Shown here: positions 4,769 to 32,310 of the stretch, in pieces
How the letters are laid out: the number at the start of each line of letters is the position of its first letter
How positions within the stretch are numbered: position 1 is the stretch's first letter
From: a virus
Lineage: Duplodnaviria; Caudoviricetes
IMG/VR virus record: IMGVR_UViG_3300022670_000561
Location: 1 to 37,522 of that record
Length of the DNA: 37,522 nt
Reading direction: 5' to 3' (one strand)
Notes under the pieces: generated by a model
Database searches by the model: none
What the model was told of the DNA's origin: nothing
What the model saw: the letters and a program-made list of their open reading frames with translations, nothing else
Program-made: the position numbers and the translations under genes

Positions 4769-4793
4769 CAAGAACCCCTCCGTTATGGAGGGG
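4767..4793 (-). terminator. Intrinsic terminator between converging tail and leftward operons
   Basis: CCCCTCC-GTTAT-GGAGGGG hairpin (4775-4793), followed on the minus strand by TTCTTGTT. Confidence 0.75.
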
Positions 4794-4807
4794 CAATGTC
4801 TCGCTGG

Positions 4808-5113
4808 CTACGATTGGTTGTTGTAGAAATCAGGGTCAGTAATTTTAAAAGGTATTTTGTCTAACCTTTTCTCGACTCTTTCAAGGCGTTTATCGATTAT
4901 CTCTATTGAGTTGAAAAGTTGTGAAAATTTAGCATCATAAAGAATCGTGATCTTTTCAAGAATTGATATAATTCCCGCCCAATTAAAAAAAACAGTTAAT
5001 AAAATTAATTGTTTATTGCTTAATGCGTTAACCTCCCAATTGCCACCCCAGCTCCATGATGAGAAAGCCCACATATAAAAAAACAATCCAGCTATAATTA
5101 TATATTTATTCAT
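4808..5113 (-). CDS. Hypothetical membrane protein (2 TM segments plus coiled coil)
   Basis: Likely start MNKYIIIAG at 5113 (TAATG overlap with the upstream gene); two hydrophobic segments. Confidence 0.6.
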   Translation of the reverse strand: MNKYIIIAGLFFYMWAFSSWSWGGNWEVNALSNKQLILLTVFFNWAGIISILEKITILYDAKFSQLFNSIEIIDKRLERVEKRLDKIPFKITDPDFYNNQS

Positions 5114-5307
5114 TACTCTATCCGTATAACTTGATACGCGGAGTAAACCGGCACATTGACGCCCCATTTCTTGAAGTCTGAGGGCTCGGCGTTGCAGTTA
5201 GAAGTAAAATGCAATACTGCGGCTATCAGCAGCAAACAGAAAACAATGCTTATGGTGCATGATTTAAAGGTGTTTTTAAACTCTTGTATTACTCGGTAAT
5301 CATTCAT
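5113..5307 (-). CDS. Small hypothetical membrane protein
   Basis: AAAAGGATGATAC RBS; one TM segment. Confidence 0.6.
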   Translation of the reverse strand: MNDYRVIQEFKNTFKSCTISIVFCLLLIAAVLHFTSNCNAEPSDFKKWGVNVPVYSAYQVIRIE

Positions 5308-5310
5308 TTT

Positions 5311-5339
5311 GTATCATCCTTTTAGTTAGTGTCGCTAGC
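5311..5339 (-). repeat. Leader/RBS repeat, copy A
   Basis: 28/29 nt identical to 6559-6587. Confidence 0.9.
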
Positions 5340-5343
5340 AACA

Positions 5344-5586
5344 CTATTTCATAGCGAGTGCAATTATATTTTCATTTAAAGCTTGGGTAGTTTCGAGCAA
5401 TCCCGTTATTTGAGCTTCATTGTTTTCTATACGTCTCTCTATTGCTTCCAGTTTTCTTTTCATCTGTTCGTCAATTTTTTTTATAGATTTAATATCATTA
5501 AGAACCTCATCCGTTTCCACTTTCCATCCCTGCACCACCGTAATCAGGTCATCAATTTTTTCTATAGTCGCGTTATATTCTTTCAT
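5344..5586 (-). CDS. Coiled-coil hypothetical protein
   Basis: AAGGATGACAC RBS; EKIDDLI...GWK motif shared with 6202-6555. Confidence 0.65.
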   Translation of the reverse strand: MKEYNATIEKIDDLITVVQGWKVETDEVLNDIKSIKKIDEQMKRKLEAIERRIENNEAQITGLLETTQALNENIIALAMK

Positions 5587-6020
5587 TATGTGTCATCCTT
5601 ATAGTTAATGGCGTTTACAATATTGTTGTTTTCTAGCTCGGTTAATGGGTCTATTGTTATGTATTCATGATTACGATATTTACCATTATCATCTATAAAA
5701 TAAACATTTATACATAGAGCTTTGGCAATATCAACAAGTTCTCCGTCGCTCATAGGAAAATCAAAGTCGACTTTTTCAATTTTGACAAGTTTTGTTATTG
5801 AAATATTTGTTTTTGAAGATAGCCAGTCAAGATGCAATCCTTTTTCTTCTCGATGTTTTTTTATTTTCTCGCCAATTGCTAACCGGGTCCCATTTGAATC
5901 CCCTTCAAAATTTCTTTCTCGCCGTATCTTTTGAATAGAGCGGTCAATATGTTTCTTTATTCCTTCGAGTTCTTCCTCAAATAATGTGTGCAGTTCGTTG
6001 TTATTCATTGTTAGGAGCAC
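5586..6020 (-). CDS. XRE-family HTH domain protein
   Basis: IGEKIKKHREEKGLHLDWLSSKTNISITKLVKIEK...LVDIAKAL is a typical HTH_3 pattern. Confidence 0.8.
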   Translation of the reverse strand: MLLTMNNNELHTLFEEELEGIKKHIDRSIQKIRRERNFEGDSNGTRLAIGEKIKKHREEKGLHLDWLSSKTNISITKLVKIEKVDFDFPMSDGELVDIAKALCINVYFIDDNGKYRNHEYITIDPLTELENNNIVNAINYKDDT

Positions 6021-6205
6021 TCACCAACTAAATAAAAAATTACCCCTAGTATCACTAACAAAGTGCAAAAAAAGATAAACGTCCAGGAGGCCGCGCTATC
6101 CCAAAGTTTTTTAATGTCTTTGTTATTCTGCAAAGCCATACAAGCAATAGCGTCTAGCTTTGTGCTGTCGTCTATATCTCGTGCTGCGATTTCTTCTTTA
6201 GTCAT
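6011..6205 (-). CDS. Small protein with C-terminal TM helix
   Basis: AAAAGGATGGCAC RBS; ATGA overlap; hydrophobic C-terminus. Confidence 0.6.
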   Translation of the reverse strand: MTKEEIAARDIDDSTKLDAIACMALQNNKDIKKLWDSAASWTFIFFCTLLVILGVIFYLVGECS

Positions 6206-6555
6206 TGTGTGCCATCCTTTTCTAAGATTGAGATTCTATCATCCATATCGGCCATGGTTTTATTTGCTCCAATTCTCCATTTCTCCATTTCTTCTTTGCT
6301 TTTAAACCATTCTTTCTTCCAAGCTGATATCAAGTTAATAACTTCTTCAATTTTTTCCTTCTCCATTTCGTCATCCTTACGTTCGCTTTCCAGTTCAGCT
6401 ACTCTATCTTTGAGTAAAAGCACTTCAGCGCTTATCCTCTTTGCCCACTCCAAACGATGTTCACCTCCTTCTTTAATTTCTTCAAATGTTGAAGAAAAAT
6501 TTTCTTTAATAATTAGGGTTATTTCTTCCGTCATTTTTAATATATCGTTATCCAT
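6202..6555 (-). CDS. Coiled-coil hypothetical protein
   Basis: Follows the repeated leader; heptad-like helical composition. Confidence 0.65.
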   Translation of the reverse strand: MDNDILKMTEEITLIIKENFSSTFEEIKEGGEHRLEWAKRISAEVLLLKDRVAELESERKDDEMEKEKIEEVINLISAWKKEWFKSKEEMEKWRIGANKTMADMDDRISILEKDGTQ

Positions 6556-6558
6556 CGG

Positions 6559-6598
6559 GTATCATCCTTTTAGTTAGTGTTGCTAGCTGCGATTGATT
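6559..6598 (-). repeat. Leader/RBS repeat, copy B
   Basis: Shares 28/29 nt with 5311-5339 and a perfect 21-mer TGTTGCTAGCTGCGATTGATT (6578-6598) with 19671-19691. Confidence 0.9.
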
Positions 6599-6601
6599 TT
6601 T

Positions 6602-6697
6602 TTAAGTTTGAGTGATGGCAACTACAATCAAAATTATAGCCAGGGCCATCAGTATTAAACAGAGAATTTTCCCTATCGTGTCCAGGATTCTATCCAT
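6602..6697 (-). CDS. 31-aa membrane peptide (not in ORF track)
   Basis: MDRILDTIGKILCLILMALAIILIVVAITQT; overlaps the end of 6690-6914 and fills the gap to the next leader. Confidence 0.55.
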   Translation of the reverse strand: MDRILDTIGKILCLILMALAIILIVVAITQT

Positions 6698-6914
6698 TAT
6701 CGTTATCGTGGGTTTCTTTTATCCCGTCCGCCATAATCTTAACCCTTTCACGATACTGATCACAACAATCCTGAAGAACCTCTACGGATGTCTGTAGTAT
6801 GAGCAATAATGCATCTGTATGATGAATTAACGAATCATACAACTCTCTATCTCCTAAATTCTTTATTGTTCCTTGAGCTAATTGCTCTAATTCTTTTAGA
6901 GTAAGGTTATTCAT
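6690..6914 (-). CDS. Hypothetical protein, paralog of 7181-7426
   Basis: Shared TLKELE.LA...I..LG and LQDCC.QYR.R.KIM.DGIKE.H.NDN motifs. Confidence 0.75.
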   Translation of the reverse strand: MNNLTLKELEQLAQGTIKNLGDRELYDSLIHHTDALLLILQTSVEVLQDCCDQYRERVKIMADGIKETHDNDNG

Positions 6915-7200
6915 TAGCGTTATCCTGCGCGTTGTTAATTATGATTTGTGCAATTGTCTTGTTTAAAATAATAATTGTATGGTCGAGTTTGTCGGCCGGT
7001 ATTTCGTCTACAATAATGTCAACAGACGGTCCATTTATTGTACAATCTGGGTGCTCTATTTTAAACATAGCTAAGTTTCGGTAAATTTCTGAGTACCTAT
7101 CTTTAAACACAATCTGTGATGATTCCGGTAATTTCTTTACCTCATCTTTGATATACTGCCTTGAGCGTTTTTGCTGTTCTTCATTCATTATCGTTACCAT
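6907..7200 (-). CDS. Hypothetical protein
   Basis: Overlaps neighbours within the operon. Confidence 0.6.
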   Translation of the reverse strand: MVTIMNEEQQKRSRQYIKDEVKKLPESSQIVFKDRYSEIYRNLAMFKIEHPDCTINGPSVDIIVDEIPADKLDHTIIILNKTIAQIIINNAQDNANE

Positions 7201-7426
7201 GCATTTCTTTTATGCCATCCTCCATTATTTTAATCCTTGCTCGATACTGATTGCAGCAATCTTGAAGAGTATCTACAGATTTGTTCAGTATGCAGACTAA
7301 TTCATTCAGATGAGAGCTTAACGCATCTGCTAACTGTTCATTCCCTAAAGTTCTTATTGCGCTTTCCGCTAAATCCTCTAATTCTTTTAGAGTTATTTTT
7401 TCCACTCTTAGTGTTATTTTATCCAA
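7181..7426 (-). CDS. Hypothetical protein, paralog of 6690-6914
   Basis: Same motifs as 6690-6914. Confidence 0.75.
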   Translation of the reverse strand: MDKITLRVEKITLKELEDLAESAIRTLGNEQLADALSSHLNELVCILNKSVDTLQDCCNQYRARIKIMEDGIKEMHGNDNE

Positions 7427-7640
7427 TTTCGATATTCTCTTTTAGCAAAGCTAACGTCTCAGCGTGTTCATCCCCGCATAACTTTTCTAGTAGATCGGTT
7501 GCCAAGTCAATCTTTTTCTGCATTTCATCGATTAATTTAACATGCCTCTTTAGACAAAATGCGGCGGTTCCTACCCATGCTCGTAGCTCAGTGTCCATCC
7601 ATTTAATAGTTTCTTCAATTTTTTCTTGATCCATTAACAT
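7419..7640 (-). CDS. Hypothetical helical protein
   Basis: AGGGGGATG RBS; overlapping operon arrangement. Confidence 0.6.
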   Translation of the reverse strand: MLMDQEKIEETIKWMDTELRAWVGTAAFCLKRHVKLIDEMQKKIDLATDLLEKLCGDEHAETLALLKENIEIG

Positions 7641-7851
7641 CCCCTTGTTTTTTTATGCTCTCTTCAAGTTTTTTAATTCTGTCAAAATACGTTTCATGAG
7701 ATTCTTTTAAACGATCCAAGGCATAGTATAAAGTCTCAAATGAGATTCCACTATCATGCATATACCTTTTTAAATCTTTTGCCGGTAAAGATAAAAATTC
7801 AATCATACTGATTGTGTATTTTGACAAAATTTTCAACCCATCGTCATCCAT
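7615..7851 (-). CDS. Hypothetical protein
   Basis: TAAGGATAG RBS; C-terminus Y..RIK.LEESIK resembles the 6690/7181 paralogs. Confidence 0.6.
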   Translation of the reverse strand: MDDDGLKILSKYTISMIEFLSLPAKDLKRYMHDSGISFETLYYALDRLKESHETYFDRIKKLEESIKKQGDVNGSRKN

Positions 7852-7865
7852 TTTTCTATCCTTAT

Positions 7866-7925
7866 TTAAACAAAGTGATCAATAATAATTATTAAAATAG
7901 CGATGATTAGGACAGCTATTTTCAT
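7866..7925 (-). CDS. Possible 19-aa hydrophobic peptide (not in ORF track)
   Basis: MKIAVLIIAILIIIIDHFV fills an intergenic gap; RBS is weak. Confidence 0.35.
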   Translation of the reverse strand: MKIAVLIIAILIIIIDHFV

Positions 7926-7954
7926 TGGCCTGGGTATATAAGAGAGGGGCTTTT

Positions 7955-8356
7955 TCATTTTAATCTTTCAGCGTGACAGTGCATATCATTAAAACGGATG
8001 ATCGGATGACATGGATCAAAGATAGAGTTTGACGCTGAGTATTTTAATATTATTTTGCCGTTGTCAGTTTTCGGGCCTCTAACGAGATAGGCGATATTCA
8101 TACTGTAATTGCGAGGCGGAGTCATTGGCGGTGCAGGATAAAAACCGTCGTGCTCTCTTTCGTATCCTTTTGCATAAATGCTGTCTGATAATCCTGTTCG
8201 TGTGTCAGACGCCCCGTTATTAATAAATAATATAAATTCAACACAGCAAGTCTGGTCAACTTTAAAATTGAAATTAAAATAAACATGGTATAAATCCCCA
8301 AGAGATTCATCAATCACATTGCCCAGCGGTATGCTGCATCCTTCTATTTCTAACAT
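7955..8356 (-). CDS. Hypothetical beta-rich protein
   Basis: 133-aa ORF with GGGA RBS, downstream of a promoter and a structured RNA element. Confidence 0.55.
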   Translation of the reverse strand: MLEIEGCSIPLGNVIDESLGDLYHVYFNFNFKVDQTCCVEFILFINNGASDTRTGLSDSIYAKGYEREHDGFYPAPPMTPPRNYSMNIAYLVRGPKTDNGKIILKYSASNSIFDPCHPIIRFNDMHCHAERLK

Positions 8357-8376
8357 TGCTTTATCCCGTGTATATT

Positions 8377-8489
8377 AAAAGCGAGGTGATGGCCAACTGA
8401 TTTCCGACACAAGGATGAAATGTAACGTAGCAGCTTCCGTCGAATCAAAAGGGCAATTTCATTATGATTAAACGGTCTACCATCACCTC
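8377..8489 (-). ncRNA. Candidate structured small RNA or 5' leader
   Basis: Ends pair via a perfect 10-bp stem GAGGTGATGG/CCATCACCTC; starts at the predicted TSS; followed by GCUUUU. Confidence 0.55.
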
Positions 8490-8496
8490 AAAACCA

Positions 8497-8525
8497 AGTA
8501 TACACACGAAATGGATGCGGGTCAA
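8497..8525 (-). promoter_or_regulatory. Sigma70-type promoter
   Basis: TTGACC-17nt-TATACT on the minus strand. Confidence 0.75.
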
Positions 8526-8543
8526 GAGTATTTGATATTTATT

Positions 8544-8792
8544 TTAAGTACGGTGCAGATAGACTAATATAGCAGCCAACTGATTAACACGTTTGAATAC
8601 TTTGCCAGCTTCAATGTATTGAACTGTGCGTAGATTAATGCCAAGGGCCTTGGCAAATTTAGGCTGTGACAAGCCCAGATCAACTCGAATTTTAACAAAA
8701 TCAGACGGTGTCACTGTCGGTAATTTCGTTCCTTTTTTGTAATCCATCTTGATTAATTTGAAATTGAATTTCTTATCTAGAGATTTAGACAT
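8544..8792 (-). CDS. Small XRE-family HTH regulator
   Basis: IRVDLGLSQPKFAKALGINLRTVQYIEAG. Confidence 0.8.
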   Translation of the reverse strand: MSKSLDKKFNFKLIKMDYKKGTKLPTVTPSDFVKIRVDLGLSQPKFAKALGINLRTVQYIEAGKVFKRVNQLAAILVYLHRT

Positions 8793-8849
8793 GCTATAAT
8801 ACCCATTATATAATTAACTTATTATACCGAAATTATAGCATGATCTCAA
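8790..8849 (-). promoter_or_regulatory. Promoter with inverted-repeat operator candidate
   Basis: TTGAGA-17-TATAAT (8849-8821); 11-bp inverted repeat CATGCTATAAT (8790-8800) / ATTATAGCATG (8832-8842). Confidence 0.6.
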
Positions 8850-8854
8850 TAGCA

Positions 8855-9160
8855 CTAGTTAAACGATAATTCAACATACCTGTTTTTTGCTAGAGCTAGT
8901 ATGCTTGCTATTTGCGAGTAATCGTCGGCTGCATCTTGAAAGTGCTTAGACATTGCCGCGTACTTTTCAGCACCTTCGTGAAGCTCTATAGTGTTTTCCA
9001 TGTACAGTTTTTGAGCCATAGTCTGTTCTACAAATTCGTTGATTGCATCGCATACCGTCGCATCTATTTGTTTAATCGTTTTGCAATCATCTAGAGATAT
9101 CCCTAGCGTTATTTGATCCATCTCTATAAGCGAGTTTTTTTTATCAATTGATTCATTCAT
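8855..9160 (-). CDS. Hypothetical helical protein
   Basis: AGGAG RBS before the ATG at 9160 (MNESIDKK). Confidence 0.6.
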   Translation of the reverse strand: MNESIDKKNSLIEMDQITLGISLDDCKTIKQIDATVCDAINEFVEQTMAQKLYMENTIELHEGAEKYAAMSKHFQDAADDYSQIASILALAKNRYVELSFN

Positions 9161-9249
9161 AATGAAGCTCCTAAAATTAATGATATAACTATAATTTCCC
9201 AAAACAGCACATCCAGCACATCCATGTATTCTACATCATTGAGCAGCAT
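9157..9249 (-). CDS. 30-aa membrane peptide (not in ORF track)
   Basis: MLLNDVEYMDVLDVLFWEIIVISLILGASL; ATGA overlap with the downstream gene; alternative start at 9225. Confidence 0.5.
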   Translation of the reverse strand: MLLNDVEYMDVLDVLFWEIIVISLILGASL

Positions 9250-10510
9250 TTCCTTTATCTTCAATATTGTCATTCCTTTGCTCCTGTATTTGATTTGTAG
9301 CTTCTGCATCCTGAATTTCTTGTACAAAATCTTGACATTCTTGCGGTAAATCGGTCTCTATATCTTCTTTAACATCATCAAGCTCAGCGTTCAAGCATAA
9401 ATCTTTAATAACATCTTTATCATGAGATATACCCTCTTTGTCGAATATGTTTTTTATCTCTTTGATTTTTTTTGCAGCTGATTCAAGTTTATCAACTTTA
9501 GATAGTTTAATTTCAGTCCAGCTCGTAGTTTTAAACAAATGATCAAGAATATTCAGCTTAGCTTGTTTGTCTTTTCCGGTGCCAGCCGGATAAATAGCTA
9601 CCAATCTATCTTGTATATTTTCAATCGCTATTGTTCTTCGTCGTCTAATTAATGATAGACCTTCGTCGAATTGATCGTCAAATAGAAGCTTAGAGTTTCC
9701 GGGGTTAAATCCGATATGCTCACCTGCTAAATTCAATCTTTGAATATGAGGCATTATATCCATAAAAGGTTTATTCTCTTTTAAAGCTTGTTCGTTTGTC
9801 ATTTTAGAGTAAGTAAATGTTTCGCCGTCAATTATATTGAAACGCTCTTTCATGATAATAACATTGCGTGTAAATCTATCAGAGCCTTTTTCCATTCGTC
9901 TTTGCATTTCAATTAATATTGAGGGTTCATGAGCGCTCTCTGTTTCGCTTCGTGCTCCAGTACCGACAATTTGCGACTTGAACTGTTCACGCCCTGTTTG
10001 CGAGCTTGCGAGATCATCTAGCACATCTTCAAATATATTTTTAGCACGCGAGCACCAGATTATATGAATGTTAGAATTAACGTAGGGTGTGCTAAAATAG
10101 TTTCTCCACGTTTCTTTGATCGGCCCCCAATCTTGCATTCTAATAAAATTGGTTCCATCTTTTTTGTGCTTAATATAAGTTGAGCAAACTTCTTTGTAGA
10201 TATGAGTGATAGAATCGACAATCAAGCCGAAACATTCCCTTTCGGCTTCCATTATTCCATCGTGAAGCGTTTTTAAGTTTTGCGCTTTTGCGGTAATAAG
10301 CTCTATATTTGCCTCTTCAAATAACGGTTTAATGAAGTCTGATCCGGTCTCTGTATCAAAGAAAGCCACCGGCTTGTCTGAGCCGGAAAATTTATGAAGT
10401 CCTATCATATAGAGTGAGGCCGTAAATGTTTTACCACTGCCTTCAAATCCATAGATGCCCATCTTCAATCTGGCCTGTGTATTTTGTGGTTTTTTAAATA
10501 TACTACCCAT
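9236..10510 (-). CDS. Sak4-like / AAA_24 P-loop ATPase (ssDNA annealing/recombination)
   Basis: Walker A GFEGSGKT, FFDTETGS, Walker B LIVDSITH; likely start MGSIFKK at 10510 with AAGGGGG RBS. Confidence 0.8.
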   Translation of the reverse strand: MGSIFKKPQNTQARLKMGIYGFEGSGKTFTASLYMIGLHKFSGSDKPVAFFDTETGSDFIKPLFEEANIELITAKAQNLKTLHDGIMEAERECFGLIVDSITHIYKEVCSTYIKHKKDGTNFIRMQDWGPIKETWRNYFSTPYVNSNIHIIWCSRAKNIFEDVLDDLASSQTGREQFKSQIVGTGARSETESAHEPSILIEMQRRMEKGSDRFTRNVIIMKERFNIIDGETFTYSKMTNEQALKENKPFMDIMPHIQRLNLAGEHIGFNPGNSKLLFDDQFDEGLSLIRRRRTIAIENIQDRLVAIYPAGTGKDKQAKLNILDHLFKTTSWTEIKLSKVDKLESAAKKIKEIKNIFDKEGISHDKDVIKDLCLNAELDDVKEDIETDLPQECQDFVQEIQDAEATNQIQEQRNDNIEDKGNAAQ

Positions 10511-12167: not shown

Positions 12168-12945
12168 AGAAAAAGAGCCAGGATTTACAATGATTAAAAA
12201 TGAGCTGTTAGATGAAATACTAAGACAAGATTTTAGCAAAACAGAGCTTAAAGTTCTGTTGGCAATAGCACGTCAAACCTGGGGCTGGCAAAAAGAAGTT
12301 GACGATATTTCGCTGTCAAGGCTGTCAGAAATGACAGGAATTAGCAAAGCTAACTTGTCCAGAGCCGTCAATTCATTGTCTGAAAAGGGCGTTATAAGCA
12401 AAAAAAATGGCGAATATGGCCAATCATTGCAGGTCAATAAATGCGCTAAAGAGTGGGTTTCTGACTCAGGCGTTGTTAAAACAACAACCCCCGGCGGGTT
12501 GTTAAAACAACAACGGGGGGGTTGTCAAAACAACAACTCAGGGGTTGTTGTTTTAACAACTACAAAAGAAACTATCAAAACAAACTATCAAAAGAAAAAA
12601 AAGAAAGTAAAGAAAAAGGAAATCTCTCTTGTCGATTTTCTGAAAGAAATGTCAGAGAAGGGCGAAAAGGGGATTCAGCCAAATGATAAAATTTTTGACT
12701 ACGGCAGGGCGGTCGGTGTAAGCGACGAAATGTTGATGACGGCATGGCACAAGTTCAAAGATTTCTACATTGGAAAAGTTGACAAAAAACAAAAAGACTG
12801 GCGGGCGGTTTTTAGAAATTGTGTAAAGGACAATTGGTACGCATATTGGGGTATTCCCGATCATGATGATGAACCGGCCTACTGGACAAGCAAAGGCAAA
12901 CAAAAGCGGAGAGAGGTTAAAAAATTTAATCATGGTTTTGAATAA
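12160..12945 (+). CDS. Replication initiator, lambda O-like
   Basis: GFTMIKNELLDEIL...ELKVLLAIARQTWGWQK..D.IS.S.LSEMTG N-terminal domain; internal iterons; upstream of DnaB. Confidence 0.9.
   Translation: MNKEKEPGFTMIKNELLDEILRQDFSKTELKVLLAIARQTWGWQKEVDDISLSRLSEMTGISKANLSRAVNSLSEKGVISKKNGEYGQSLQVNKCAKEWVSDSGVVKTTTPGGLLKQQRGGCQNNNSGVVVLTTTKETIKTNYQKKKKKVKKKEISLVDFLKEMSEKGEKGIQPNDKIFDYGRAVGVSDEMLMTAWHKFKDFYIGKVDKKQKDWRAVFRNCVKDNWYAYWGIPDHDDEPAYWTSKGKQKRREVKKFNHGFE
12472..12620. repeat. Replication origin: four 17-bp iterons plus A-rich tract
   Basis: GTTGT(T/C)AAAACAACAAC at 12472, 12498 and 12521; inverted copy at 12544-12560; A-rich tract follows. Confidence 0.85.
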
Positions 12946-18984: not shown

Positions 18985-19016
18985 AGGGCTGGGTATGTAA
19001 GTGCCTTGCCCTTTTT
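18985..19016 (+). terminator. Intrinsic terminator (+ strand)
   Basis: AGGGC-T-GGGTAT-GTAA-GTGCCT-T-GCCCT followed by TTTT; G-U pairs favour the + strand. Confidence 0.65.
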
Positions 19017-19368
19017 AATCAATATATTCAAACTCTATTCTGTTTAGCGAGTCTCTCATTGAGCGTTTTTTCAGCATATTGTACTGTTTTCGCAGCAAAT
19101 TAATAAGCTCGTAGGAGTTTAAATCTGGAAAACCTTCTTTAACACATTCTTCGTGATTAATTTTAAACATTGGTGATTTCTCGGCTGATAAAATCCTGAT
19201 CTTATCAAGATGTACGATTTTTTCCCCTTTTTTGAGACCCGTCGTTTTTTCTACCGCGTTCACTTCAACACCGGGAATTAAAAATCCCCATCCCAATCTT
19301 CGAGTAACTGTTTTCGTTCTATTCTTAATTTGCGGGATTGTCAAATAAAAACTCATGTTGAGTGGCAT
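19015..19368 (-). CDS. ASCH domain protein
   Basis: NMSF.LT..QI..RTKTVTRRLGW..L.PG....AVEK..GLKKGEK...EGFP...NRIEFEY. Confidence 0.85.
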   Translation of the reverse strand: MPLNMSFYLTIPQIKNRTKTVTRRLGWGFLIPGVEVNAVEKTTGLKKGEKIVHLDKIRILSAEKSPMFKINHEECVKEGFPDLNSYELINLLRKQYNMLKKRSMRDSLNRIEFEYID

Positions 19369-19390
19369 AATTTGCCCTTTTTGTTTTGGT

Positions 19391-19651
19391 TTAATCTTTG
19401 TCTATTATGTTAATTCTAACATTGACGTCAAGATCAAGCTTTAATTTTACAAGCTCTTTACTTACATCGTTAACCGCATCGTCAAGCATGTAGTTGTAGA
19501 TTTGTGCGGCAATGTCGGGGATTGTTTTATACTTAAGGTTTCCAGACGTGTTTGAGTATATGTATTTAATGCGCTCAACCGTGCGAGTTGGTAATTTTTG
19601 AAGCGCTGATTTAATATAACCTCTATACAATTCTTCTAGATACTTATTCAT
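19391..19651 (-). CDS. Hypothetical protein
   Basis: Preceded by leader repeat copy C. Confidence 0.6.
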   Translation of the reverse strand: MNKYLEELYRGYIKSALQKLPTRTVERIKYIYSNTSGNLKYKTIPDIAAQIYNYMLDDAVNDVSKELVKLKLDLDVNVRINIIDKD

Positions 19652-19658
19652 CTGTCGT

Positions 19659-19691
19659 CATCCTTATCGTTGTTGCTAGCTGCGATTGATT
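19659..19691 (-). repeat. Leader/RBS repeat, copy C
   Basis: 21-mer identical to 6578-6598, followed by the AAGGATGA RBS. Confidence 0.9.
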
Positions 19692-19696
19692 ATTTA

Positions 19697-19918
19697 TTAA
19701 GAAATAGTAACGACTCCGTCACCCGTGACTGACCTAAAATGACTCTCCAAACAATCAGGACATTGTGTCATAGTGTCCCAGACCTCATTGACTGCATCAT
19801 CAAATGGTTTGAGAGCTCGAATATTTGTTTTGCAGTCAGGACATTTATATTCTGTTATCCTTTCACCGCTAAATTGATCCATATATAAATCGTGTTTCTT
19901 CCTTAGCTCAGTTGTCAT
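19697..19918 (-). CDS. Small zinc-ribbon protein
   Basis: Two CPDC motifs; CAGGGATGATAC RBS. Confidence 0.7.
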   Translation of the reverse strand: MTTELRKKHDLYMDQFSGERITEYKCPDCKTNIRALKPFDDAVNEVWDTMTQCPDCLESHFRSVTGDGVVTIS

Positions 19919-19950
19919 TGTGTATCATCCCTGTTGTTTACATGTATTCT

Positions 19951-20337
19951 TTAATTTAATTGATAAATGTTTTTACGAAAATCTGTAAGCTTCATATCAT
20001 CTTTTATGAATCGATCCGCGTCAAGAGATTGGTGCAGTCTAAATGATCCTTCTTTGTTCATTTTTATATGCTCAATTGCATCGTGAAGATTAAAGATTAA
20101 AAGGTCTTTTAACTTTGATTTTTTATAATCGACCCATATTTTATAATCATCTGAAGAAATCGGAGCTTTGTCATCATCGTCTAAATCAGCCTCAATTTGA
20201 CACGTGGTAACAAAATCCGCTTTATCTTCATAAGTTTCAACGTAGCCAACCCTTTGTTGTTCGATCGGTAGAAAAAATAAAACATCAGGGTAAGCAAGTT
20301 CCTCTTCTTTATTGATAGTGATTTTCATTATCATCAT
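19951..20337 (-). CDS. Hypothetical acidic protein, paralog of 20402-20803
   Basis: Shared AD.D..D....SDD...W.D.......I.N....IEHI motif. Confidence 0.7.
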   Translation of the reverse strand: MMIMKITINKEEELAYPDVLFFLPIEQQRVGYVETYEDKADFVTTCQIEADLDDDDKAPISSDDYKIWVDYKKSKLKDLLIFNLHDAIEHIKMNKEGSFRLHQSLDADRFIKDDMKLTDFRKNIYQLN

Positions 20338-20371
20338 CCTTGTTTGTTTAATTTCTTAAGTTGTTAAACAT

Positions 20372-20400
20372 ATTATAACGAAACTATTGCGTTATGTCAA
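20372..20400 (-). promoter_or_regulatory. Consensus sigma70 promoter
   Basis: TTGACA-17-TATAAT, a perfect consensus. Confidence 0.9.
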
Positions 20401-20401
20401 G

Positions 20402-20803
20402 CTATTCGTCTTCCATTTCGATGAAACCGCGACTAAGAAGCGCTCTGCACAAAGGAAAGACAGCGGGCTTTGAATCATTGATATGCTCAATCACTTCGTC
20501 AATATTCATTATCTTGCAAGATTCAAAATCTTTTGCATAAAAATCTAACCAGACTTGAAGATCATCGGAATCAGGGATATTGTCGTTGTCTGTATTATCG
20601 CAATCTGCTAATAAAAGAGTCCATTTTCTTTTCGTTATTTCTTCAAAAAGCTCATTTTTATCTTTAACTGCCCAGCCGCATGCGGCACGTGGATCATCAT
20701 CGCCAATTGGTGTGGTTACAACAAACGTCATGTTTGGATAGAAATCTACTGCTTTTTGATTGATCGCGTATGTTGTATTTTCAACTGTAATTTGTCGGTC
20801 CAT
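20402..20803 (-). CDS. Hypothetical acidic protein, paralog of 19951-20337
   Basis: Same motif; AAAGGATGATGAC RBS. Confidence 0.7.
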   Translation of the reverse strand: MDRQITVENTTYAINQKAVDFYPNMTFVVTTPIGDDDPRAACGWAVKDKNELFEEITKRKWTLLLADCDNTDNDNIPDSDDLQVWLDFYAKDFESCKIMNIDEVIEHINDSKPAVFPLCRALLSRGFIEMEDE

Positions 20804-20844
20804 GTCATCATCCTTTGTTTATGTTTTGCTGATTCGTTAAAGAG

Positions 20845-20873
20845 AGTATAGCGAAATAGTTGCGGCATGTCAA
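20845..20873 (-). promoter_or_regulatory. Near-consensus sigma70 promoter
   Basis: TTGACA-17-TATACT. Confidence 0.85.
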
Positions 20874-25476: not shown

Positions 25477-25764
25477 ATGACAGTTGAAACGATAGCAATG
25501 ATATGGATGATAGGCGGAATAGCTGCTGGCACTATATTGATATTATCAATACTAGGATTTCTCGGTAAAAGGTTCGGTGTTAAAGAGCCGGATGATCTAT
25601 GGCTTGACGATGATGAAGCCTGGGCAGGGTATAATCCCGCGATTGTTGCAAGAAGCAAGGATGAATACAATTATGTGTGGTGTGGTGACGGTAAGCCGTG
25701 GTCGAGTCAAGAATCTGCTGATGAATTTATGGGCGTAAATATGGAGGGTGACTCAGATGACTGA
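25477..25764 (+). CDS. Single-TM protein
   Basis: GAGGAG RBS; N-terminal TM. Confidence 0.6.
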   Translation: MTVETIAMIWMIGGIAAGTILILSILGFLGKRFGVKEPDDLWLDDDEAWAGYNPAIVARSKDEYNYVWCGDGKPWSSQESADEFMGVNMEGDSDD

Positions 25765-31499: not shown

Positions 31500-31588
31500 A
31501 GACTTAATGGCAATGTTGTACAAATCAGCAACTGGCGTTCACACTCTGTATTTAACAAGTGGCGAGTGATATAAGAGGGCAAACGTAA

Positions 31589-31840
31589 ATGGATAAAGAT
31601 AATAGCGAGTATTACCGTCAATTTGCTGAAGGTATGGCGCGACATACGTCAAATAATTTTAATGCAGAAAATATTGAACTTCTTTTACAAGCGTTCGAAA
31701 CGGAATACGAAAAACACGGCCCGCATAATGAAAGCGGATGTTTGGATATTTCGAAGATAAAATTTAATCATCCGATTTATTCAGATGAAGAGATTGAGTG
31801 TATGCTTGAACAACTTGAAGCAATACAAGGCGGGGAGTGA
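31589..31840 (+). CDS. Hypothetical acidic protein
   Basis: GAGGG RBS; 83 aa. Confidence 0.55.
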   Translation: MDKDNSEYYRQFAEGMARHTSNNFNAENIELLLQAFETEYEKHGPHNESGCLDISKIKFNHPIYSDEEIECMLEQLEAIQGGE

Positions 31841-31846
31841 TATAAT
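31838..31846 (+). promoter_or_regulatory. Extended -10 promoter
   Basis: TGATATAAT (TGnTATAAT); predicted TSS ~31853 at the base of the first stem. Confidence 0.6.
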
Positions 31847-31852
31847 AGCGGG

Positions 31853-32224
31853 ACTAGAGTGATTGAAATATGGCTAGTTTAGACCGGAAAGCATACCTAA
31901 ATTACTCTAGATATAGGAAGAAACAGCGGGTTGATTTTGATGGATTGATCGACAGCTAACCGGCTTAGCGCGCTCTGAAAGTTCTTCTTATCGGCCACGG
32001 TTACGACAGAAACCCAGGCGCTCTGCAACCGGGGCGCCGACACATTATTTCTGGTATAATGCAGGGGATTATAAGAGGTTGACGCAGTTAAGCGAGGCTG
32101 CGCATTTGATGAGAATAGACGCGGTATACGCACTTTGATATACCATATTTTCTTATTCAATTTGGTTAAGTGCAGGCAACTTGAGCACCTCAATCGACGT
32201 AGCAAAGGCTGCTTGCACTTGATC
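31853..32224 (+). ncRNA. Candidate large structured RNA or cluster of small RNAs
   Basis: At least 7 consecutive stem domains with many G-U pairs, including a 15-bp stem 32164-32178/32210-32224; no long + strand ORF. Confidence 0.65.
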
Positions 32225-32234
32225 TTTGATTTGT

Positions 32235-32310
32235 AGCGGGGTAGCTCAGTCTGGTAGAGCATTGGACTCAAAACCATGTGCGCAGGTTCGAATCCTGCCC
32301 TCCCCGGCCA
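32235..32310 (+). tRNA. Aberrant tRNA-like gene (nominal anticodon CAA; possibly a pseudogene)
   Basis: Canonical D-arm (TAGCTCAGTCTGGTAGAGC), T-arm (GCAGG-TTCGAAT-CCTGC) and 3' CCA; anticodon and acceptor stems are imperfect. Confidence 0.7.

Follow-up and report, generated by a model that had tools for sequence, protein, structure and literature searches.

The window analysed here is the whole stretch of 37,522 nucleotides, positions 1-37,522 of a virus record that is 93% complete and represents an uncultured, P22-like phage. A likely source run, labelled marine sediment metagenome, matches the window without differences and is therefore no independent copy. When its 74 proteins were compared with PHROGs, the head, portal, and terminase proved P22-like, and a lambda O-like initiator, DnaB, and a Sak4-like recombinase were also identified; none of the 74 was recognised as an integrase, and the only HTH matches were weak and short. 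The closest Sak4-like relatives are P0003 (68%, 13.8 kb), P0007 (57%, 44.7 kb), and P0008 (55%, 34.0 kb). The closest cultured capsids are those of Pseudomonas phage AH02 and Vibrio phage 1.275.O (48% and 39%, respectively), and the related major capsid proteins are at most 50% identical, so that only distant relatives are at hand; the hosts of the nearest cultured relatives are gammaproteobacteria. The annotations of AH02 and 1.275.O list neither an integrase nor a full-length CI, the former having only a 60-aa Cro/CI protein and the latter an antirepressor. Elsewhere in the window, the O-like gene holds direct and inverted repeats at 12469-12563 in the manner of a lambda-type replication origin, and the small ORFs 6692-6913 and 7183-7404 are tandem duplicates, 72% alike over 222 nt. 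A tRNA-like gene at 32234-32310 on the plus strand, with a malformed anticodon loop (tRNA-??? in ARAGORN, 44 bits in Rfam), is possibly a degenerate tRNA, and the stretch around it, 31840-32300, has no recognised gene.

The RNA locus occupies the intergenic space that separates an 82-aa HTH gene (8544-8792) from a 133-aa orphan (7955-8356). RNA and genes share the minus strand, and both flanking proteins are orphans, a homologue search with the HTH protein having been negative (Table 1). The promoter of the HTH gene (8849-8821) bears a variant of the spacer motif CGCA-N4-TTTCG, and the region ahead of this gene, 8786-8849, contains overlapping divergent promoter-like sites that score 11/12 each and are flanked by an 11-bp inverted repeat; the plus-strand site would run antisense to gene 8855-9202. 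The 133-aa ORF, which is encoded among early genes and not tail genes, is predicted to adopt an all-beta, jelly-roll-like fold (pTM 0.80 in the Atlas, pLDDT 57 in a second prediction). A structure search with it returned nothing at E ≤ 0.001, the resemblance to jelly rolls of the TNF/C1q type and to phage fibre tips being weak and non-significant. Two minus-strand ORFs overlap the beginning of the 133-aa gene out of frame with it, a hydrophobic one of 63 codons (8313-8122) and one of 9 codons (8339-8310) whose stop overlaps an ATG of the longer ORF, an arrangement that is probably due to chance.

Table 1. Coordinates of the RNA locus, its predicted targets, and the mycobacteriophage hairpins used for comparison
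Feature	Position	Strand	Basis or remark
82-aa HTH gene, directly upstream of the RNA	8544..8792	-	weak HTH matches below the Pfam cut-off
Sigma70-type promoter-like site, TTGACC-17-TATACT	8497..8525	-	10/12 consensus matches
Spacer motif CGCA-N4-TTTCG	8507..8519	-	also in the promoters at 20873 and 20400
Predicted three-way-junction RNA, 107 nt	8383..8489	-	folding
5' arm of closing stem, SD-like	8479..8489	-	folding
3' arm of closing stem	8383..8393	-	folding
Loop 1, 17 nt (8464-8448), with seed 1 (8456-8447)	8447..8464	-	P(7 nt open) 0.23
Loop 2, 9 nt (8420-8412), with seed 2 (8418-8409)	8409..8420	-	P(7 nt open) 0.97
Pair of 7-nt boxes in the first codons of the 133-aa gene	8318..8343	-	8343-8337 matches loop 2, 8324-8318 matches loop 1
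133-aa ORF, first after the RNA	7955..8356	-	orphan; homology search returns only itself
First strong downstream terminator-like hairpin	4774..4797	-	likely end of the leftward operon headed by the RNA
Sister promoter with the spacer motif, preceding a tagged gene	20845..20873	-	motif match
Sister promoter with the spacer motif, preceding a tagged gene	20372..20400	-	motif match
Tag before gene 20402-20803	20808..20815	-	AAGGATGA count
Tag with perfect 10-nt RNA match, before ATG 20328	20334..20343	-	seed match
Tag variant before gene 19697-19918	19925..19934	-	10 bp, one G-U
Tag before gene 19391-19651	19658..19665	-	AAGGATGA count
Tag before gene 6202-6555	6562..6569	-	AAGGATGA count
Tag 4 nt before in-frame internal Met (6366) of gene 6202-6555	6371..6378	-	AAGGATGA count
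Tag variant before gene 6011-6205	6212..6219	-	start scan
Tag before gene 5344-5586	5593..5600	-	AAGGATGA count
Tag before gene 5113-5307	5314..5321	-	AAGGATGA count
Loop-1 target, ribosome site of gene 19015-19368	19372..19381	-	10-nt match
Loop-1 target, ribosome site of gene 31589-31840	31574..31582	+	best-scoring start in the seed model, -9.8 kcal/mol net
Reversed-SAS hairpin, Adephagia, gene 92-93 gap	L317:30662-30717
Reversed-SAS hairpin, Anaya	L318:31850-31904
Further aligned hairpin loci	L319-L324

The preliminary description of this locus had placed a promoter of the form TTGACC-17-TATACT ahead of the RNA, with transcription starting at about 8489, and as sequence this is borne out: the site runs from 8525 to 8497 on the minus strand with 10 of 12 matches, and a G at 8489 lies 7 nt past the -10 box. 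A score of 10/12 alone says little, as promoter-like sites number 34 per 7 kb in the real sequence versus 27 in shuffled sequence. The spacer motif CGCA-N4-TTTCG is found exactly at three genome sites, against 0.19 expected, all of them within promoter spacers, and the three promoters that bear it (at 8525, 20400, and 20873) share the form TTGAC-17-TATA(A/C)T. Those at 20873 and 20400 stand directly ahead of genes tagged with the 8-mer AAGGATGA, which places the RNA promoter in the same class as the promoters of its predicted targets. The motif is likely an operator, and the HTH protein encoded at 8544-8792 is a candidate to bind it. A promoter pattern with the spacer motif also matched 12 other viral contigs, none with the RNA, so the motif may partly reflect a general spacer preference. 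Among 353 promoter-like sites in 2.08 Mb of partly redundant DNA, a promoter followed by a closed stem at +1 was found at six distinct places, one being this RNA and another looking tRNA-like. Two promoter-led structures from this wider set are worth recording: a closed 134-nt structure of -64 kcal/mol on the minus strand of L111, a Sak4-bearing metagenome contig (promoter 16188 bases from the strand start), and an 87-nt closed stem at L028:13517-13603 (+), downstream of a Sak4-like gene and just before a putative replication gene. The latter was considered as a counterpart of the RNA and set aside, its sequence being unlike and its loops matching no enriched start motif.

From 8489 to 8383, the transcript has a predicted folding energy of -32.9 kcal/mol: a closing stem of 11 bp leads into two hairpins whose loops, of 17 and 9 nt, are open, and four of the pairs are G-U. 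The perfect 10-bp terminal stem proposed previously is thus confirmed, with arms at 8489-8480 and 8392-8383 and 11 bp when a U-G pair is counted. The fold has a z-score of -2.9 at 107 nt and -3.4 at 108 nt, with none of 200 shuffles as stable, and 14 of 1168 GC-matched windows (1.2%) are as stable as the RNA window. Perfect inverted repeats of at least 10 bp spanning 60-150 nt number seven in the genome versus a mean of 4.6 in 20 shuffles; the closing inverted repeat alone is ordinary, and the whole fold is unusual. The plus strand folds at -27.0 kcal/mol (z -1.85), which favours the minus strand, and a plus-strand RNA was rejected for its weaker fold, single GGA, and lack of a good promoter. 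The three-way junction is the minimum-energy fold at all six lengths tested, from 107 to 589 nt, with a mixed ensemble at 300 nt. In folds of transcript prefixes, seed 2 is open at only 0.04-0.12 when 85-95 nt have been made and at 0.97 at 107 nt; the SD-like 5' arm is thus predicted to sequester seed 2 until the 3' arm has been transcribed.

The two mutually exclusive folds that the preliminary description had drawn fare less well. Both of their pairings exist, but at -28.9 and -29.0 kcal/mol the folds are about 4 kcal/mol worse than the three-way junction, and with pair probabilities of at most 0.005 we reject them as the main folds; the favoured fold leaves both loops open, and a two-fold switch controlling 7955-8356, as drawn there, is unsupported on the same grounds. 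The AUGAAA/UUUCAU helix, one of those pairings, links loop 1 to loop 2, and as a 7-bp helix of -3.4 kcal/mol it could only be a weak loop-loop kiss. A role for the SD/anti-SD likeness of the closing stem as a start gate was likewise discarded, as no plausible start would be gated and the sole ATG lies within the motif. No intrinsic terminator was found after the 107-nt stretch, and nothing terminator-like turned up as far as 5234. The best reading is accordingly that the RNA heads an operon of 13 ORFs, and processing would be needed to release a free RNA. The locus is probably a real structured RNA element.

The tag AAGGATGA occurs nine times versus 1.61 expected, a count that none of 100 shuffles reached. 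Six copies lie 4-6 nt before leftward starts and one before an in-frame internal Met; one of the remaining copies is inside a rightward gene (the plus-strand copy at 25657, on the sense strand), and the other, a reversed copy at 8411-8418, is the RNA loop itself, loop 2 being the exact complement of AAGGATGA. Two tag variants add genes 19697-19918 and 6011-6205. The broader pattern A[AG]GGATG[AG] has 14 sites, of which eight lie 4-6 nt before an annotated ATG and one before the internal Met; all eight tagged starts belong to small leftward ORFs, and the tag is absent from the head, tail, O-like, and DnaB genes of the window. The seed in the RNA and its 10-nt match to a ribosome-binding site, both claimed earlier, hold up, with the seed at 8418-8409 and the match at 20334-20343, one base away from where it had been placed. 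In seven other phage records or loci examined, six of them scanned together with the window, there was no comparable tag, the top 8-mers occurring 2-3 times; the distant relatives likewise lack it. The tag can pair with the 16S tail at -5.4 kcal/mol with a bulge, and several copies share longer upstream repeats, which suggest duplication, so that the tag is explicable without an RNA reader. Upstream of several tags and at the operon end, at 6578-6602, 19671-19695, 5302-5339, and 4799-4823, there recurs a leader roughly 25-40 nt long whose core is palindromic (repeat families D6 and D10); it suggests an early-gene cassette array shuffled by repeats.

The relation between loops and gene starts was assessed on 65 starts picked by hand. 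Counted blind to the RNA, the commonest 6-mers ahead of them are AAAAGG and AAGGAT, with 12 each; loop 1 complements the former and loop 2 the latter, and seed 1 in loop 1 also complements AGGGCAA ribosome sites. In a seed model that includes opening costs, with a cut-off of -4.5 chosen after a gap in the energies had been seen, loop 2 matched 11 of the 65 starts (9 of 24 leftward) versus 2 of 400 random windows, and loop 1 matched 6 of 65 versus 4 of 400. Permuted loops reached these match counts in 7/300 cases for loop 2 and 6/300 for loop 1, and the summed energies in 9/300 and 16/300, respectively; by summed energy loop 1 is marginal, and its seed is predicted to be open at only 0.23. The small rightward gene (11778) adjoining the O-like gene was matched in the model, and the starts of the O-like, DnaB, head, and tail genes were not. 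The seeds are short, 8 bp amounting to -9.2 kcal/mol and net energies to -5 to -10 kcal/mol, and pyrimidine-rich loops pair with SD-like sequence from composition alone. Among 45 overlapping sites complementary to a top-5 upstream 7-mer, a set that excludes the antisense strands of annotated starts, none has a more stable surrounding fold than the seed 2 site, which is itself open at 0.97, and an open seed of this kind arose in 7 of 1500 shuffled RNAs. The view of the RNA as a multi-target anti-RBS repressor, put forward in the preliminary description, has gained support from the second seed in loop 1 and from the complementarity to each of the top two 6-mers, and it stays a tentative one.

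The covariance in relatives to which that description had looked did not materialise, as searches found no homologue of the RNA, and the element rests on one sequence without covariation. Blastn against 50,697 phage records gave no match, and blastn and nhmmer over 185 loci gave nothing under E = 1; a covariance model built from the single sequence, and weak for that reason, reached a best E no better than 0.15 in 99 loci and found only a short coding hairpin in AH02. Pattern searches for the closing stem returned two matches in viral contigs, both within a coding gene, those for the leader repeat one chance match, and those for hairpin 2 none. Two-seed patterns gave 91 viral and 31 genome matches, and none of these 122 resembles the RNA or has both seeds open in a stable fold, under a filter strict enough that the window's own copy falls just below the loop-1 cut-off (0.27 vs 0.3). 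A literature search of incomplete coverage found no published multi-target anti-RBS phage RNA, and no RNA addressed to a shared RBS tag appears in the available excerpt of a review of phage small RNAs (PMC12197685).

Our preferred reading, to which we give a little less than even weight, is that the RNA is an anti-RBS RNA that heads an early operon and shuts off tagged accessory genes as a timer. The promoter match, spacer motif, complementarity, and tag positions behind it are sequence, and the fold and loop accessibility are predicted. Driven by an early-type promoter, the RNA would adopt the closed three-way junction, and its two open loops would mask the ribosome tags of about ten small non-structural genes and block ribosome loading, loop 2 covering the tag class and loop 1 a second class of ribosome site. 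It would head a run of 13 leftward ORFs, from 8356 to about 4800, as one operon in which four starts are tagged, and could either be freed by cleavage in the A/U-rich stretch past the stem or be active within the long transcript. Unfinished transcripts would be inactive while the 5' arm holds seed 2. Because its promoter is of the same class as that of the tagged cluster at 20873 and 20400, the RNA would accumulate alongside its targets and end the early burst, acting as a timer for early accessory genes and not as a lysogeny repressor. The earlier suggestion that the RNA stands in for a missing CI is highly improbable: the O-like, DnaB, head, and tail genes are untagged, and the two closest cultured relatives lack any listed integrase or full-length CI.

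Several other explanations must be weighed against the anti-RBS reading. The element may be no more than a structured 5' leader of the leftward operon, serving in 5'-decay protection, as a processing signal, or as an antitermination site, with coincidental loop matches and a tag that is simply a good SD spread by cassette duplication. A stem beginning at the predicted +1 with no terminator after it, the longer upstream repeats shared by the tags, permutation p-values of only 0.02-0.05, and the persistence of tags without a mirror in the mycobacteriophage SirPhilip would all fit such a leader. We nevertheless think it rather unlikely, as it leaves unexplained both the match of the two loops to the two commonest upstream 6-mers and the presence of an exact 8-mer complement in a loop open at 0.97, which by composition is expected at about 0.002 per 100 nt. 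That the arrangement is mere chance in an intergenic gap, with no functional RNA, is very improbable. It would require the coincidence of a promoter bearing a private motif, a stem that starts at +1, a z-score of about -3, and two matching loops; in its favour, inverted repeats of 10 bp are common, 1.2% of GC-matched windows are equally well folded, and nothing is conserved elsewhere. Slightly more improbable than chance is that the tag is a protein site, read by host CsrA/RsmA or a phage factor, with the RNA loop at most competing for the same site or pairing with GGA loops in RNAs of the CsrB type. Of the 12 positions in the CsrA consensus given in PMC4347634, the tags agree at 8-10, and the gammaproteobacterial hosts of the nearest cultured relatives would suit this idea. 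However, the invariant ACA is present in only two of nine tags, the last base is A in eight and G in one but never the consensus U, and either A or G pairs with the RNA; moreover, the GGA is not in a stable hairpin loop, the tag regions being nearly unstructured.

The antisense RNA C4 has a two-box a'/b' arrangement and is processed by RNase P. A cis regulator of the C4/CI type, in which the loops pair with two downstream 7-nt boxes, stall translation of the 133-aa gene, and cause premature termination of the operon, is an improbable explanation here, and one that can coexist with the anti-RBS reading. In its favour, the boxes in the first codons of the 133-aa gene lie in antiparallel order 40-65 nt downstream of the RNA, and no other non-self pair in the genome draws on both C-rich seeds; such a pair is held by 78 of 20,000 shuffles (p ~0.004) and by 27 of 2990 genome windows, self sites included. 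Against it, the boxes, at +14 to +39 of the coding region, are predicted to be mostly paired (accessibility 0.11 and 0.005), the full RNA duplex ranks just 20th in the genome, and the genome-wide pair list contains no upstream target pair on the same strand that would correspond to C4 a1-b1 or CI seqA. No icd/kil-antirepressor or replication operon was recognised under the RNA (PHROGs, 74 proteins; Pfam, 30 proteins), nor was an antirepressor or icd-like gene recognised downstream. Models of the C4 antisense RNA (RF01695) and P4 CI RNA gave no match at the gathering score in the window and none at E ≤ 10 in 7600-9400, and the RNA is not a C4 member. The comparison with P1 C4 and P4 CI made in the preliminary description survives as a way of working and fails as a matter of membership, there being neither an Rfam match nor an upstream pair. 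In the excerpts available, P4 CI RNA acts by pairing with seqA and seqC (PMC4825925) and C4 blocks icd-ant (PMC8198154), and the C4-type comparison is also drawn from PMC2864571.

An analogous layout is found in cluster K mycobacteriophages. As described in the available excerpt of Pope et al. (PMC3203893), SAS is a 13-bp motif that precedes the ATG of non-structural genes by 3-7 bp; four K1 phages have a single copy in reverse, and the reader of the motif was left open in 2011. According to the corresponding excerpt of the 2024 Adephagia paper (PMC11373665), its role is still 'not known', and late transcription in Adephagia starts between genes 92 and 93; in neither excerpt is an antisense role proposed for the reversed copy. 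[quoted passage not shown] The hairpin matches 126 mycobacteriophage records, and in an alignment of eight of these, chosen for spread, 95.5% of stem cells pair and 2 of 17 pairs have changed on both sides. The covariation score is reached by 4 of 500 shuffles, which as a control take no account of relatedness. Seven of the eight phages keep the anti-SAS loop, a conservation that is partly built in, because the loop was part of the search query. For Niklas, an 89-nt piece has another minimum-energy fold, in which the loop is still unpaired. SirPhilip retains the hairpin and has eight SAS tags in a 17.9-kb stretch of its 61.9-kb genome, but its loop is not anti-SAS and no reversed SAS copy was found in that stretch; tags can thus persist without a mirror, and the mirror is not indispensable. 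By analogy, SAS renders the design of a tag and its mirror plausible, although the SAS hairpin is not homologous to the window's RNA. It is a doubtful but not unreasonable generalisation that unrelated phages have repeatedly evolved such a tag-and-mirror system, in which a private early-gene RBS tag is paired with one structured RNA silencing the whole set, with a two-seed version for two tag classes here and with the K1 reversed-SAS hairpin at the start of late transcription being the SAS reader missing since 2011.

If the anti-RBS reading is true, this phage would time a whole gene set with a single small RNA that recognises a tag at ribosome sites, and would need no protein repressor to do so. 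The same layout in cultured mycobacteriophages, for which the function of SAS was stated to be unknown in both 2011 and 2024, would make an old question directly testable in Mycobacterium smegmatis, and a tag-addressed RNA switch would offer a compact tool for shutting off groups of genes.

Set beside known systems, the proposed mechanism overlaps with several of them. The phage antisense RNAs sar, OOP, C4, and CI each act on one gene or operon, as far as the excerpted literature describes them. Like P1/P7 C4 and P4 CI, the window's RNA is by prediction small and branched and would head the operon under its control, with a candidate pair of short complementary boxes, predicted to be poorly accessible, farther along the transcript; unlike them, it has no Rfam match, upstream pair, icd, or ant, and its main predicted targets are many unlinked ribosome sites. 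The tags share with CsrA/RsmA sites an AGGAUG core overlapping the SD, but most of them lack the ACA, their last base departs from the consensus, their GGA sits in no stable hairpin loop, and the proposed reader is an RNA. Salmonella Gifsy-1 IsrK, which is encoded by a prophage, offers a parallel in doubling as a 5' leader and as a short RNA that acts in trans on its own long transcript. As described in PMC4825925, IsrK switches on translation of a single downstream ORF and ends at a terminator of its own, whereas the window's RNA is without a terminator and would repress many sites. The resemblance to SAS is that, in both cases, non-structural genes have an asymmetric, private motif in place of the RBS, a few nt ahead of their ATG and in one orientation, and that a single reversed copy lies away from gene starts, in a predicted hairpin loop. 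The two differ in phage group and in sequence, the window's tag being a different 8-mer and not the 13-bp SAS itself, and the mirror in the window lies in a predicted, promoter-led three-way junction with a second seed, whereas that of the K1 phages is a single hairpin in the gene 92-93 gap.
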